This document shows, one piece after another, positions 26,327 through 32,059 of a stretch of 64,000 bases of DNA (position 1 is its first letter; each line of letters begins with the position of its first letter). The notes under the pieces were generated by a model. It had not been told where the DNA came from. It did not search any database and saw nothing but the letters and a program-made list of their open reading frames with translations. This DNA is from a virus (taxonomy: Duplodnaviria > Caudoviricetes), in the IMG/VR virus record IMGVR_UViG_3300021399_000102, positions 1 to 64,000 of that record, one strand, 5' to 3'. Position numbers and translations under genes: made by a program.

Positions 26327-26689
26327 ATGATGGGTGACATATCCAAATATCCAAATCTTGAACGGTATTATAGGCATTTCGAGGAATCTTATGGGAAGTC
26401 AGAGAGGCATGACGATTCTTTCCCCAATCTCATAATCTGGATTAGGTTGGTTGTTGAGCCAGAAGACGATGGGAAAGAATGGACAGATGCAGCGCAATTC
26501 TTCGAGCTGGATGAAGATGATTCTGAGGATTTCCACTCATGGGGACACAACAGCAGATGGGCGAATGTATTTCTGCCATTTGCCTTGCATAACATGGAAC
26601 TTGTCAAGGAGAAGTGCATTGAACTCGCCGAAAGATTCGGCGACCCCAATGTTGAAGAATATCTGAAGGGGACAAATGATTACACCTGA
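26327..26689 (+). CDS. Hypothetical protein
   Basis: TGGTATAAT and AAGGAAGG upstream; overlaps the polymerase start. Confidence 0.65.
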   Translation: MMGDISKYPNLERYYRHFEESYGKSERHDDSFPNLIIWIRLVVEPEDDGKEWTDAAQFFELDEDDSEDFHSWGHNSRWANVFLPFALHNMELVKEKCIELAERFGDPNVEEYLKGTNDYT

Positions 26690-28784
26690 CTACAAGCTTA
26701 CATTTGACGTTGCCAAGATTCGTTCCATCATAGAGCCAAACGATGGCTATTGTTGGGTCTATTATGACCCATTTGGAATGAACCCAAGATTGGACGAGAA
26801 TGGCAAGATTTATCTCAAGTGCTTTGAGAAGGACACGCACAAGCCAATCGTGGTGGAGGTCAAGGACTTTCCATCTACGCTTTGGCACAGAACAACTGAC
26901 AAGTCCGCAATGGCGAGAGCCACGAAGGTTGATGCCTATGGCCAGCCTGTGGTTCAAGAGGTGTTCTTCAATGGGGCGCAAAGAAGGAAGTGGTTGACCG
27001 CATGGAAGAAGCGCACAGACTATTGCGAGAACCAAATTGTTCAGTGCATGGATCCGTGCGACGAGTTCATGCAGCAAGTGTTCTGGCAAGAGGCACAGGA
27101 GGAAACCTTCAATAAGGGATTCCAAAGGGTGTTCTTCTTGGATATTGAAACCGAAGTGTCAGAGACTTCGCTTCAACCGTGGAAGGCTGAGGACAAGGTG
27201 TTGATGGTCACTATCTACGATACCCAAACAGAGAAGTTCTACACTTGGTCTCTGAAGCCGGCAAAGGTTGAATTCCACGATGAACTTGACGAGAATGGAA
27301 ACGTGGTTTGGCACAATCCATTGTCAGACTACCCCAAGGACAAGTTCGTTCTCTACGACAACTTCAATGGTGACGAGCGGGAATTGCTCAAGCACATGAT
27401 GAGGTTCTGGGTTCATAACTACCCAGATGTTCTATGTGGTTGGAACAGCAGATGGTACGATATGCCATATTTGGTCAGACGGGTGGAGAACGTATTGGGC
27501 AAACCTGCTGCCAAATACTTCTCGCCACTTGAGGATTATTCCATCCACCACGAGAAATCCAACAAGAAGGACGAGAAGGGGCATTGGATTGAGAAGGACG
27601 ACATTGAATGGGTTGAGATAAAGGGCTTGTTTCAGGCAGATGAAATGGTTCTCTATTCCAAGAAGTTCAAGGTCAAGGAGGCACTTGATGGTGGATATGG
27701 CTTGTCGAACGTTGGACAAGCAGAAGGGTTTGGAGGAAAGATTGCATACGAGACAACGCTTCTTGACCTCTACAACCAAGATTGGCAGAAGTTCTACGAG
27801 TACAACGTCCGAGACGTTGAATTGCTTTGGTCAATCGAGCAGAAGTGCAAGTTGATACCACTTGCGAGGACGGTCGCGGGGTTTGGATTGACAAACTACG
27901 ACTACATCTATCAGTCGGCACCCTATCTCGTTCCCACAATCTCCATCTTCTGCCAGAAGCACCGTGAGAACATGATATTCAATTCCTACGCCAACAACTT
28001 CCGAGAGAAGGTGAAGTTCGAGGGGGCGTGGGTGATTCCTCCAGTGGTAGGACGGTATTCCTATGGAACTGCCACTGTTGACTTCAACTCACTTTATCCA
28101 TCCTGCATGCGTATGCTCAATCTTTCCATTGAAACCTATGTTGGACGCATAGACGATGGCTACAATGGCGAGGGTGGCTTGGACAACTTCTGGATGACCC
28201 ACGGTGGCATAGATGGCATCCCTGAGGACACGAAGTTCAAGTTGATTCTTGACAGAGTGGATATGCAAACTCCCATTGAGAAGGAGATTGATGTTCCAAC
28301 TCTGAGGAAGCTCCTTGAAACCAAACTCATAATCTGCCCAACGAACATGACACTGTTCTTGAAGCACGAAGTGAAACGTGGTGTCATAGCAGATTGGGCA
28401 GAGGTGTTCTTCAACCGAAGGAAAGCCACGAAGGGCGAGATGTTCAAGTGCGATTTGGAGGCAGAGAAGTGTCAGGATCCTATTGAGAAGGAGAAGTTGC
28501 TTACGAGAATGGAGAATCTCAAGAACCTTCAGCAGGCCTTGAAGATTTGCTTGAACTCCATCTATGGAGCCTTGTCGACGACAGGATGTCCATTTCTCCA
28601 TAGCATAGGTCTTGCGCAAAGTGTGACAAGGGCAGGTCGTTTCTCAAACTATAATGGTAGATTATTCTACAAAAAGTGGCTAAAAGAGCAATATAACATT
28701 GATGACAACTATGTTGTCACCGCGTCCGGCGATACAGATTCGTCAGTTTTCGACACATACATAGATGTAATTGAAGAGGATTGA
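26676..28784 (+). CDS. Family B DNA polymerase, N-terminal part plus 14-aa N-intein
   Basis: Exo I DIETE, Exo II GWNS..YD, Exo III YNVRD, motif A DFNSLYPS, motif B K...NSIYG; ends SGDTD|SSVFDTYIDVIEED-stop. Confidence 0.93.
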   Translation: MITPDYKLTFDVAKIRSIIEPNDGYCWVYYDPFGMNPRLDENGKIYLKCFEKDTHKPIVVEVKDFPSTLWHRTTDKSAMARATKVDAYGQPVVQEVFFNGAQRRKWLTAWKKRTDYCENQIVQCMDPCDEFMQQVFWQEAQEETFNKGFQRVFFLDIETEVSETSLQPWKAEDKVLMVTIYDTQTEKFYTWSLKPAKVEFHDELDENGNVVWHNPLSDYPKDKFVLYDNFNGDERELLKHMMRFWVHNYPDVLCGWNSRWYDMPYLVRRVENVLGKPAAKYFSPLEDYSIHHEKSNKKDEKGHWIEKDDIEWVEIKGLFQADEMVLYSKKFKVKEALDGGYGLSNVGQAEGFGGKIAYETTLLDLYNQDWQKFYEYNVRDVELLWSIEQKCKLIPLARTVAGFGLTNYDYIYQSAPYLVPTISIFCQKHRENMIFNSYANNFREKVKFEGAWVIPPVVGRYSYGTATVDFNSLYPSCMRMLNLSIETYVGRIDDGYNGEGGLDNFWMTHGGIDGIPEDTKFKLILDRVDMQTPIEKEIDVPTLRKLLETKLIICPTNMTLFLKHEVKRGVIADWAEVFFNRRKATKGEMFKCDLEAEKCQDPIEKEKLLTRMENLKNLQQALKICLNSIYGALSTTGCPFLHSIGLAQSVTRAGRFSNYNGRLFYKKWLKEQYNIDDNYVVTASGDTDSSVFDTYIDVIEED

Positions 28785-28866
28785 CTAAATCCTTTCTATG
28801 GCACAATTAGTATAATTGTAAATAGTAATGGCAACGAGTTGTTGCCATTATTATATGAGGAATATT

Positions 28867-30708
28867 ATGTCTGAACTTGAAGAAATAAAGGCAATTGTTT
28901 ATGCCAATAGAACATCTTGGCGAAAGTTATTGGAAAAGCGCAATGACTTGATGGAGTATATTCGTGTTCATACTCCATCACTGATTTCTGGCGAAGAGTA
29001 TAAATTGAGTACCAAGTTGTATTGGTTGTTCAACGGACTCACAGAATTTCCACGATGTAAGGAATGTAAAAAGAACGAACATTATATTGGACGAAATGTG
29101 ATAAATGTGTTCAAGGGTTATTATTCATTTTGTTCAAGTTCATGTGGATCGAAGAACAAGGAGACACAAATAAAGCACGAGAATACGAATGTTCGCGTAC
29201 ATGGGGTCAAGTCCACAAATTCTCTAAAGTCAGTGATAGCCAAGAAGCAGAAGACGATTGCTGAGAATCATGGCAACGGTGATTTGAAATTAGCTTACAA
29301 GAACATACATGCGAAGGGCGAAAAGACATGTGAACGCAAGTATGGTGTCAAGAACATATTTCAAACTGAGGAATGTCGGAAAAGGAGAAAGGAGGTTTGT
29401 GAGGAGAAATTTGGCACTGAATGGACTTTGCAGAACGAGGATAATCAAAGGAAATGTAGGGAAGCCAAGATAGAGAAATTTGGTTGTGATCCAATGAAGA
29501 TTCGCTCTGTGGTGGAAAAGATGCTCCACAATAGATGGGACTTGAAAAGCGACGATGAATTGAAAGAGATAATAGATAGGACAAACGCCATCAAGAAGAA
29601 AAACAGATACAATGCCATTCTATCCACAGAAACGATACCGTTGTTCTCAATAGACGAGTTCAATTTAAGGGACTATGACACGAAATATAGATGGAAGTGC
29701 CTGAAATGTGGAAACGACTTTGAAGCTCCCTTGGATTGCTCGTTATATTCTGTGTCAGACCACAAAGTCATGGCAAGATGTCCAATTTGTCATCCTCCAT
29801 GTCCAAATGGGGTTTCGGCAGAGGAGATAGAGGTTGCTAAGTTCGTTGGTGGATTTGTCGATGTATTACAGAACGATCGAAAGATTCTGAACGGTAAGGA
29901 ATTGGATATCTATGTTCCATCGAAGAATCTTGCGATAGAGTTCGATGGATTGTATTGGCACAGCGACAAAAATAGTGAAAGTCAAAACAGGCATTTGGAC
30001 AAGACCAACTTATGCGAGAAATTGGGAATTCATCTTGTTCATATATTCGAGAATGAATGGTTGCACAACCGCAATCAAGTTGAATATAGGTTGAAGAATT
30101 TGCTTGGTGTGTACGACAAGACGATATATGCCAGACAATGTGTAGTGAAGGAAGCCTATGGTGATGATTCTGTTGTGTTTCAAGATGCGAACCATCTTCA
30201 AGGTCACACCAATGCGAAAGTAAGTTTGGGGTTGTATTATGATAGAGAATTGGTTTCCTTGATGACATTCTCCAAACCTAGGTTTAATAAGAATTACGAG
30301 TGGGAACTTGTGAGATTCTGCAATAAGTGTGGATATCATGTCCCAGGTGGGGCTTCCAAGTTGTTGAAGCACTTTGAGAGAACATATCATCCAAAGTCAA
30401 TCGTCAGTTATGCTGACAGAAGATGGACGATGAACAATGGGAACACTCTGTATGATAGACTTGGATTCTCACTTGATCACATATCCAAGCCAAATTATTG
30501 GTATTGGAACACTGAAAACAGGGATTATGCTCTATATAGCAGAATTCTATTTCAGAAGCACAAGTTGAAGGGCAAATTGGACAAGTTCGACGAGTCAAAG
30601 TCAGAGTGGCAGAACATGCAGGACAATGGATACGATAGGATATTTGATTGTGGAAACCTTGTGTTCGTCAAGAACTACGATTTACGAAATACCACATTAG
30701 TGGTATAA
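28867..30708 (+). CDS. Free-standing putative homing endonuclease (Hef/Vsr-like with Zn ribbons)
   Basis: CxxC motifs, T..(R/E)KYG repeats, ELDIYVPSKNLAIEFDGLYWH, WELVRFC...GGASKL...SYADRR; lies between the two polymerase halves. Confidence 0.8.
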   Translation: MSELEEIKAIVYANRTSWRKLLEKRNDLMEYIRVHTPSLISGEEYKLSTKLYWLFNGLTEFPRCKECKKNEHYIGRNVINVFKGYYSFCSSSCGSKNKETQIKHENTNVRVHGVKSTNSLKSVIAKKQKTIAENHGNGDLKLAYKNIHAKGEKTCERKYGVKNIFQTEECRKRRKEVCEEKFGTEWTLQNEDNQRKCREAKIEKFGCDPMKIRSVVEKMLHNRWDLKSDDELKEIIDRTNAIKKKNRYNAILSTETIPLFSIDEFNLRDYDTKYRWKCLKCGNDFEAPLDCSLYSVSDHKVMARCPICHPPCPNGVSAEEIEVAKFVGGFVDVLQNDRKILNGKELDIYVPSKNLAIEFDGLYWHSDKNSESQNRHLDKTNLCEKLGIHLVHIFENEWLHNRNQVEYRLKNLLGVYDKTIYARQCVVKEAYGDDSVVFQDANHLQGHTNAKVSLGLYYDRELVSLMTFSKPRFNKNYEWELVRFCNKCGYHVPGGASKLLKHFERTYHPKSIVSYADRRWTMNNGNTLYDRLGFSLDHISKPNYWYWNTENRDYALYSRILFQKHKLKGKLDKFDESKSEWQNMQDNGYDRIFDCGNLVFVKNYDLRNTTLVV

Positions 30709-30739
30709 TTTAATGAAACTATATTTGGAGAGACTTTCA

Positions 30740-32059
30740 ATGACATCTGTGAAGATTGGCGAACTATACAACAAGTATCTGGCAAAGGGATATGAGATTG
30801 TCAATACCCCAACTGGGCATGAATTGATATATCCAAAGAGCCTAAAAGTGCGTTCCATTGGCAACGAATTCAAGAAAGTGAAGTGCCTATCTCGTCATAG
30901 AACCAGCAAGCCATTGGTGAGGATATGCTTTCAGAAGTCAGAACCATTGGTTGTTACAACTGACCACGTTTGCATGGCGTACAACGACGATAGGATGCTT
31001 GAAAACATTGCATCCAAGGACCTGCGCGTTGGTATGATGGTTGACCATTATTGCAGGACTTCTGACAAGGAGGTCATAGATGTAATCACCAACATAGAAC
31101 CTCTCGGAACCACTGATGATTATGTCTATGACTTGGAGGTGGAGGACGAGTCACATGTGTTCTACGCCAACGACACTCTTATCCACAACTCATTCTTCAT
31201 GAACTTGGAAGCTGTCACAAAGGACTTCATAGCCAAGTATGGATGGGACGACAACATGAACAATTGGACTGACGAGCAAAAGCTTCAGTTGTTCGCCCAT
31301 ATGCAAAAGTTCACCGACGAATACCTTGTACCACACATTCAGGAGTTGGTGACAAAGGAATTCCACACTTCCAACGCCAAGCCAATGAAGTATGGTCTTG
31401 AATACATGACTTCTGGTGGCATATTCGAGTCTCCGAAGCACTATATCGTCCATAAGATTGTGGATGAGGGTCCGAAGGTAGTGGATAAGTTCAAGTACAC
31501 TGGCATTGAATTGAAGAAGGCTGTTGTTCCACCAGAAATCAAGAAGTTCATGAAGGACATCTACTTCACTGCTGTCATCGACCCCAACTTCAACCACGAT
31601 GCTATAAAGCGCAAGATGGACGAGGTGTATCAGGAGTTGTTGAAGATGTCTCCAAACGCCTTGGCGAAATGGCAGGGTTATGGCACAGAGACCACTATGG
31701 AGGGATTCTTGGTTGAATCAAAGGGTGCTACTGGAATTGGCAAGTGCGCCAACTACTACAACCAAATCATCAGAAAGCTCCATCTTGACAAGAAATATGC
31801 CCTCATCAACGTAAAGGACAAGATTCAGACAATCTACATCAAGCCAACGAACGTCTATGGCATAAACCAAATTGGCTTTCCACCAAGGCAGTGGCCAGAC
31901 GAGTTCAACGACATCTTTGAGATTGACTATCCCACGATGATGGAGAAGGTTGTCATATCCCCATTGAAGGGCTTGCTTACTGCCCTTCGGATGGAAGACC
32001 TCATAAAGTACGACCCAGCAATATCTGCTGCCCTTGAATACAGTGTTGATGACATTTAA
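30740..32059 (+). CDS. C-intein (~150 aa) plus family B DNA polymerase C-terminal part
   Basis: Block B VTTDH, block F VYDLEV, block G IHN|S (junction 31189/31190), then polB C-terminal motifs (K.Y, KYTGIE); own TGGTATAAT and GGAGAG SD. Confidence 0.92.
   Translation: MTSVKIGELYNKYLAKGYEIVNTPTGHELIYPKSLKVRSIGNEFKKVKCLSRHRTSKPLVRICFQKSEPLVVTTDHVCMAYNDDRMLENIASKDLRVGMMVDHYCRTSDKEVIDVITNIEPLGTTDDYVYDLEVEDESHVFYANDTLIHNSFFMNLEAVTKDFIAKYGWDDNMNNWTDEQKLQLFAHMQKFTDEYLVPHIQELVTKEFHTSNAKPMKYGLEYMTSGGIFESPKHYIVHKIVDEGPKVVDKFKYTGIELKKAVVPPEIKKFMKDIYFTAVIDPNFNHDAIKRKMDEVYQELLKMSPNALAKWQGYGTETTMEGFLVESKGATGIGKCANYYNQIIRKLHLDKKYALINVKDKIQTIYIKPTNVYGINQIGFPPRQWPDEFNDIFEIDYPTMMEKVVISPLKGLLTALRMEDLIKYDPAISAALEYSVDDI

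Follow-up and report, generated by a model that had tools for sequence, protein, structure and literature searches.

The DNA analysed here, referred to as the window, comprises 64,000 nucleotides from a tailed virus (positions 1 to 64,000 of IMG/VR record IMGVR_UViG_3300021399_000102). Within it, a DNA polymerase is encoded in two parts by adjacent genes on the plus strand, in the order polymerase N-terminal part, endonuclease-like gene, and polymerase C-terminal part preceded by the C-terminal fragment of an intein (IntC). Gene 1 (26676-28784, 702 amino acids) ends ...YVVTASGDTD-SSVFDTYIDVIEED, followed by a TGA stop codon at 28782-28784. Its N-extein (26676-28739) consists of the exonuclease domain and the N-terminal part of the polymerase domain of a T4 gp43-like family-B polymerase (PolB; Pfam DNA_pol_B_exo1 and DNA_pol_B), and ends at SGDTD, which contains the motif C aspartates. 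The last 14 codons (28740-28781) encode SSVFDTYIDVIEED. Alignments with the contiguous intein of a related polymerase, P0080, and with the PolB16 intein, both described below, identify these residues as an N-terminal intein fragment (IntN) consisting of Ser1, block A/N1 and strand beta2. Gene 2, an open reading frame (ORF) at 30713-32059, contains a 150-residue IntC (30740-31189) with NX motif SRH, block B TTDH, block F VYDLEV and block G HN, as recognised by matches to 8cpn_A and Pfam Intein_splicing. The C-extein (31190-32059) starts with Ser+1 (31190-31192), continues FFMNLEAVTKDF... (FFMNLE) and comprises 289 residues in total, Ser+1 and 288 further polymerase residues, matching unbroken relatives. 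It ends at a TAA stop codon, as does the endonuclease-like gene. The sequence-only reading, made before any database search, had placed IntN at 28740-28781 after SGDTD and had gene 2 open with about 150 residues carrying TTDH, VYDLEV and HN ahead of Ser+1 at 31190; both parts of this description were borne out by the sequence layout.

The most likely start of gene 2 is ATG 30740 (Met10 of the ORF), which gives the 150-residue IntC. This start is favoured because it has a GGAGAG Shine-Dalgarno sequence 7 nucleotides upstream and a sigma70-like promoter, and because relatives start there. The putative promoter, TTTACG-17-TATAAT with an upstream TG (30681-30709), matches the consensus at 10 of 12 positions, and together with the Shine-Dalgarno sequence it forms a predicted control region at 30681-30739. 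An alternative start at Met 30626, in a frame that would be extended if TAG were read as Gln, was rejected: the relatives start at a Met beside VKIGELY, and the Shine-Dalgarno sequence and promoter indicate 30740. Translation of TAG as Gln otherwise leaves the locus unchanged, as the three genes stop at TGA, TAA and TAA and no reading frames become joined. The promoter sits within the 3′ end of the endonuclease-like gene, and transcription of the IntC gene may begin at a start of its own.

A search with the C-terminal part of gene 1 identified 43 unbroken polymerases of 952-977 amino acids, up to 88% identical, which lack the intein and are here called empty alleles. They align with gene 1 through the SGDTD point, where they read SGDTD-SFFMNLEAVTKDF (SGDTDSFFMNLEAVTKDF). 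Their consensus, GDTD-S[FY]FMNLEAVTKDF, is the same as the predicted splice product, and 288-290 residues follow GDTD in the empty alleles compared with 289 from Ser+1 in gene 2. The earlier suggestion that splicing would rebuild motif C as SGDTD-SFF is therefore in agreement with the intein-less relatives, which read exactly SGDTDSFFMNLEAVTKDF.

One further relative, P0080 (1119 amino acids, 81% identical), contains an unbroken intein, SGDTD-STEFFTNIDVIEEDDCNVVKIGELYNK...LIHN-SCFFNLE. The window IntN and IntC together align end to end with this contiguous intein, and 10 of the 14 IntN residues are identical to the matching P0080 stretch. The alignment positions the break between ..IDVIEED and (DCNV)VKIGELY, four residues before VKIGELY. 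DNA homology between the window and P0080 extends up to GAG GAT, directly before the TGA stop codon, and resumes at GTG AAG ATT GGC. The DNA comparison thus indicates that a cassette of approximately 1.96 kb lies in the loop after beta2 of a mini-intein. The GC content of the cassette with its endonuclease-like gene is 39%, compared with 47% in gene 1.

Residues 13-159 of gene 2 matched positions 10-155 of the 155 positions in the Pfam profile Intein_splicing (PF14890), so that only the first nine positions, corresponding to block A, are absent from gene 2; these are supplied by the gene 1 tail. The IntC also matched PDB entry 8cpn_A, annotated 'PolB16 intein' (8CPN/8CPO), with an E value of 3.3e-37 and approximately 56% identity over the last 87 amino acids. 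Judged from sequence, the agreement with an intein layout is far beyond chance. The 8cpn_A and Pfam matches, together with the P0080 alignment, support the earlier proposal of a fractured DNA polymerase joined by a split intein; the polymerase is of family B, and the intein is an atypically split one of class 1, with a predicted 14-residue IntN and 150-residue IntC.

To this may be added the conservation of the splicing residues. Gene 2 was aligned with 69 relatives, at identities down to 32% (70 sequences in all). All but one of these relatives, of 288 amino acids, are 432-465 amino acids long, and from their lengths nearly all have the same split form. Positions S60, H62, T82, D84, H85, V138, Y139, D140, H148, H158, N159 and S160 were invariant. 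These include T82, D84 and H85 of block B (TTDH, residues 82-85), identical in 70/70; His62 of the NX motif S60-R61-H62, in which residue 61 is R or K in 70/70; and, with VYDLEV and HN in blocks F and G, the junction HN-S, present in every sequence. On the side of gene 1, where Ser1 lies at 28740, the IntN pattern S-x-x-x-D-T-x-I-x-V is kept in 36 relatives, and among 44 split N-parts the residue at position 1 is Ser in all but two, which have Thr. The invariance of the catalytic positions indicates purifying selection on the splicing chemistry. The catalytic residues include no cysteine (Ser1 and Ser+1), and the four cysteines of IntC are at positions 49, 63, 78 and 105 of the 150-residue form.

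The closest characterised intein is PolB16 OarG, from a PolB gene of a sheep gut metagenome, which has an N-extein ending in SGDTD and uses Ser1 and Ser+1 (Pasch et al. 2023, PMC10189870). Its IntN is SVHGKTHVFIRSIKN (15 amino acids) and its IntC has 168 amino acids; splicing has been shown both in vitro and in E. coli, and the intein has been crystallised (8CPN/8CPO; PMC10189870). The same study describes an NX-motif His preceded by Arg or Lys as a signature of Ser1 inteins, in which this His is essential (PMC10189870). The window intein and PolB16 have in common the PolB host, the SGDTD-S insertion site, Ser1 and Ser+1, the 'S1' split after beta2, the NX Arg-His, a block B of the form TTDH(V/I)C and a gut-type phage source. 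Their IntN sequences align without gaps, sharing S1, T6 and hydrophobic residues at positions 8 and 10, although that of the window is one residue shorter. They differ in the character of the tail, which is acidic in the window (IDVIEED) and basic in PolB16 (FIRSIKN), in the length of IntC (150 and 168 amino acids, with four and two non-catalytic cysteines respectively) and at the start of the C-extein (SFFMN and SQFAN). Only some 37-56% of the aligned residues are identical. By these sequence criteria the window element belongs to the PolB16 OarG intein family. The family includes an acidic-tail subfamily, approximately 50% identical to PolB16 and containing the window copy, and a basic-tail subfamily.

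Two other split inteins were compared. The Aes123 PolB1/CL/CLm intein of T4-like Aeromonas phages (PDB 9HTH, PMC11923092) is likewise a cysteine-less split intein of a phage PolB and is distantly homologous (E 6.2e-7), but its natural split is at the canonical site with a long IntN, and its 26-residue IntN version was engineered (PMC11923092). VidaL T4Lh-1, as cited in PMC13014065, resembles the window intein in having a natural atypical S1 split, with a 16-residue IntN; that source gives it as cysteine-dependent and located in another host gene. A phmmer search of the PDB with the last 30 residues of gene 1 returned only chance WD40 matches. No match to cultured phages was obtained by megablast of the locus, and tblastn against them detected only the polymerase extein, at 25-28% identity. 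Gene 2 matched gp43 of T4-like cyanophages only from residue 138-143 onward, and the intein was found in no cultured phage of the collection searched.

The sequence-only reading had also called for a structure prediction of the IntN/IntC complex. The model was built from the final 35 residues of gene 1 and from the IntC with 15 extein residues, each supplied as an alignment. The predicted complex had an ipSAE of 0.62, compared with 0.00 for the best of three controls, a value that may echo the solved 8CPN structure; for calibration, 58 of 80 solved complexes and 2 of 110 mismatched pairs scored as high. The runs had at least 78% of their contacts in common, and the partner predicted local distance difference test score (pLDDT) was at least 49. 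The confident interface is formed by residues T20-D35 of the tail (IntN) with IntC residues 1-9, 32-38 and 141-145. In 11 IntN/IntC pairs the charge of the tail is opposite to that of the contacted IntC strands: IDVIEED is found with LKVRS, and KLRIRRI with IEVLT. This complementarity is only suggestive of pairing, since the pairs are few and related.

A pathway that would fit this arrangement is as follows. A free-standing homing-endonuclease cassette of about 1.96 kb would have entered a mini-intein that interrupts motif C (DTD-S). As the cassette lies inside the intein, the polymerase is encoded on two adjacent genes, and as the break directly follows strand beta2 (the 'S1' atypical site), the first polypeptide ends in a 14-residue IntN. 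Expression signals, and a start for the downstream half, would have arrived with the endonuclease-like gene, which presumably also promotes the spread of the cassette. Once translated, the acidic IntN strand is predicted to dock between the N-terminal strand of IntC and its LKVR strand, completing the HINT fold. Splicing could then follow the class-1 oxyester pathway, with an N-O shift at Ser1, attack by Ser+1, cyclisation of Asn150 (Asn159 in ORF numbering) and an O-N shift. The product would be a 977-residue polymerase, ...SGDTD-SFFMNLE..., with release of the two intein pieces.

We put the probability that the two fragments form a functional trans-splicing intein at roughly 0.85. Several points weigh against this. 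The pass of the complex model may only reflect recall of, or likeness to, the PolB16 structure, as the homologous 8CPN had already been solved. The Pfam score of gene 2 alone, 34.2 bits, is below the curated cut-off of 35.8, as expected when block A is located on another protein. One PolB gene was detected in the 201-kb record, and a second polymerase is conceivable since the record is only about 48% complete. Finally, PolB16 is the one relative that has been tested, and it splices slowly, with up to 25% C-cleavage (PMC13014065), so that efficient activity of the window intein cannot be assumed.

The halves could instead be dead for splicing and hold together as a non-covalent clasp, making a two-subunit polymerase comparable to the gp43 of Aeromonas phages, which is split without an intein, or to the fragmented NrdA of Aeh1. 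Phage genes that were split by a homing endonuclease gene (HEG) and work without splicing do exist (reports cited in PMC2677866; PMC3045599). A mere clasp would not be expected to keep Ser or Thr at position 1 in 44/44 N-parts, nor T-x-D-H, the NX His, the block F Asp, the penultimate His, the terminal Asn and Ser+1 unchanged in 70/70 gene 2 sequences. The break is, moreover, inside motif C (DTD-S), where a retained insertion of 164 residues would occupy the active site. The closest tested relative, PolB16, does splice. We therefore regard such a clasp as unlikely, and trans-splicing as the preferred reading.

T4-like phages carry group I introns, which counts in favour of the halves being joined at the RNA level, by a group I or group II intron or by trans-splicing, with the intein-like blocks incidental. 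Vsr-like endonuclease genes occur in group I introns too (PMC2677866). There is, however, very little room for an intron, as non-coding sequence amounts to only 43 nucleotides before the endonuclease-like ORF (82 nucleotides if it starts at 28867) and 4 nucleotides after it, up to ATG 30713. A scan of 28300-31500 on both strands with Rfam at E ≤ 1 found no family, and on these two grounds a group I intron was rejected. Removal of the RNA from the stop codon to ATG 30740 would in any case leave a complete 164-residue intein in frame, as in P0080, and protein splicing would be needed anyway. Joining at the RNA level is thus extremely improbable. A recent disruption or assembly artefact, with the polymerase gene simply broken, was considered because the record is an assembly from an uncultured metagenome and is incomplete. 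A protein identical to gene 1 is nevertheless found on two contigs, one of them 422 kb long, and the layout is repeated in numerous independent samples and in divergent lineages, where the tails are conserved and the genes have proper starts and Shine-Dalgarno sites. This recurrence excludes an assembly artefact, and a simply broken gene is very unlikely.

The gene in the gap is a free-standing, homing-endonuclease-like gene at 28867-30708 (613 amino acids), or from ATG 28828 (626 amino acids). It matched phrog_3339, 'homing endonuclease', at 1e-120, and Pfam DUF7487; a weak match to REase_MTES_1575 was below the cut-off. A sequence search of the PDB with the gap protein returned nothing meaningful, including no match to I-Bth0305I, and a fold search was needed. 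An AlphaFold (AF2) model of the last 314 residues (29764-30705) had a pLDDT of 88, and its nuclease domain superposed on the I-Bth0305I catalytic domain, 3r3p_B, with TMt 0.76 and a root-mean-square deviation of 3.1 Å. The C-terminal 200 or so residues have a GNAT/Mom-like fold in the model, with phage Mu Mom (8bv8) as best PDB match (E 1.9e-5), and PF25680 was found in relatives. The protein therefore appears to consist of DUF7487, a Vsr-like/EDxHD nuclease domain and a C-terminal Mom/GNAT-like domain. I-Bth0305I is an EDxHD/Vsr-like enzyme (PDB 3R3P, PMC3239194), and the gap ORF resembles it in fold and in carrying an E..D....H.D signature (IEFDGLYWHSD). It is unlike I-Bth0305I in its length of about 600 amino acids, its DUF7487 and Mom/GNAT-like domains, and in being free-standing rather than intron-encoded. 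We refer to it as a putative homing endonuclease on the strength of these sequence and model matches. Its relatives form more than 7,400 clusters.

A putative control region precedes the endonuclease-like gene at 28818-28866. It contains GTAAATA, a late-type motif (28818-28824) present in 20 copies in the window compared with 4.1 expected (five-fold), followed by a 14-bp hairpin that buries ATG 28828 (predicted RNA fold -26 kcal/mol, z = -4.1), and then by a GAGGAA Shine-Dalgarno sequence and ATG 28867. The arrangement is reminiscent of T4 homing endonuclease genes, which are controlled by a late promoter and a hairpin.

The three-part layout was found in at least 10 independent phage contigs. 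The gap is not always filled by the same gene, and the alternatives in relatives are a DUF7487 protein of about 600 residues, a phrog_22677 protein of about 430 residues with a weak Vsr-like C-terminus, and a 298-residue SprT-like protein. Such differing gap genes are located at L010:5087-5983, L012:4696-5985, L013:2816-5910 and L014:4698-5990; the gap holds the 298-residue SprT-like ORF, the phrog_22677 ORF (428-430 residues), or a tandem of a 428-residue protein and a 593-residue DUF7487 protein. The variety suggests that a single intein loop has been invaded, or had its gene replaced, more than once.

All three allele states, empty, contiguous-intein and fractured, are represented in polymerases with at least 80% identity over residues 440-702, the region compared. 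A quick tree of the N-exteins of 42 close polymerases required at least five switches between the empty and split states, and the contiguous-intein allele stood beside an empty one. This switching pattern is consistent with continuing movement or loss of the element. Fractured genes in which split-intein halves flank a free-standing Vsr-like endonuclease gene, with cassette-borne control elements and in a phage setting, were described by Dassa et al. (2009, PMC2677866), who found the Vsr-like family in half of their fractured genes. The window locus is like them in its adjacent, same-strand halves, in the endonuclease between these, and in having a DNA-synthesis enzyme as host. The earlier loci are reportedly split at the canonical endonuclease position, and would differ in this respect from the window, with its split after beta2; a further difference is that all three allele states are found among close polymerases here. 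Among more distant IMG/VR phages, a contiguous intein is present at the same GDTD-S site at L041:6590-8530, and the frame is interrupted at this site at L030:6560-7673.

The lengths of the IntN tails were compared in 44 related clusters of split N-parts. Tails of 12 residues were found in 8 clusters, 13 in 11, 14 in 21, 15 in three and 16 in one, and five further 12-residue tails were found in IMG/VR loci. The shortest published natural IntN of the Ser1/Ser+1 kind has 15 residues (PMC13014065). The description of the window IntN as among the shortest natural ones thus held with respect to the published record, by one residue only, and did not hold within its own family, where 19 of the 44 clusters have tails shorter than 14. 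The novelty implied for it, including use in thiol-free semisynthesis, was not upheld, since PolB16 OarG had already been characterised and crystallised, and its synthetic IntN peptide used for thiol-independent semisynthesis (PMC10189870). The window intein is accordingly a further PolB16-type intein, of the acidic-tail subfamily; it is known in kind and does not represent a new mechanism.

Such an IntN, being short and cysteine-independent, would be accessible to peptide synthesis and could allow labelling under oxidising conditions with cysteines left untouched. In March 2026 PolB16, with its 15 residues, was listed as the only natural intein of the cysteine-independent short-IntN type, and as slow and prone to side reactions (PMC13014065). 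Approximately 70 relatives now place it in a large natural family with IntN fragments of 12-16 residues and two charge types, which thereby offers candidates from which better or mutually orthogonal tools could be drawn. We lean, with slightly better than even confidence, towards a wider view: that the window intein and its relatives with 12- and 13-residue tails are natural, functional Ser1/Ser+1 split inteins below the 15-residue record; that the acidic-tail subfamily could act orthogonally to the basic-tail PolB16 and perhaps splice faster; that one lineage shows the empty, contiguous and HEG-fractured stages of the gene-breaking model, with the switches counted above; and that the unrelated gap genes reflect repeated invasion. 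In biological terms, the locus would be a clean case of an essential phage gene kept functional across the insertion of a selfish element, with the states before and after the break preserved in close relatives. Its value is modest: it supplies useful candidates for intein engineering and is a neat illustration of evolution.

The source is a T4-like jumbo phage from uncultured samples, assigned as T4-like because T4-type portal and gp23 genes are present at related loci; the IMG/VR record is 201.6 kb in length. Sequences related to the gap gene are also found outside the intein. In one relative a DUF7487 endonuclease paralogue lies immediately upstream of the polymerase N-part (L012:573-2363), and in the phage record that holds the window, but outside the window itself, a second, distant match to the N-terminal DUF7487 part of the endonuclease-like protein was found on the minus strand at G000:C1:146370-147017 (25% identity, E 2e-16).

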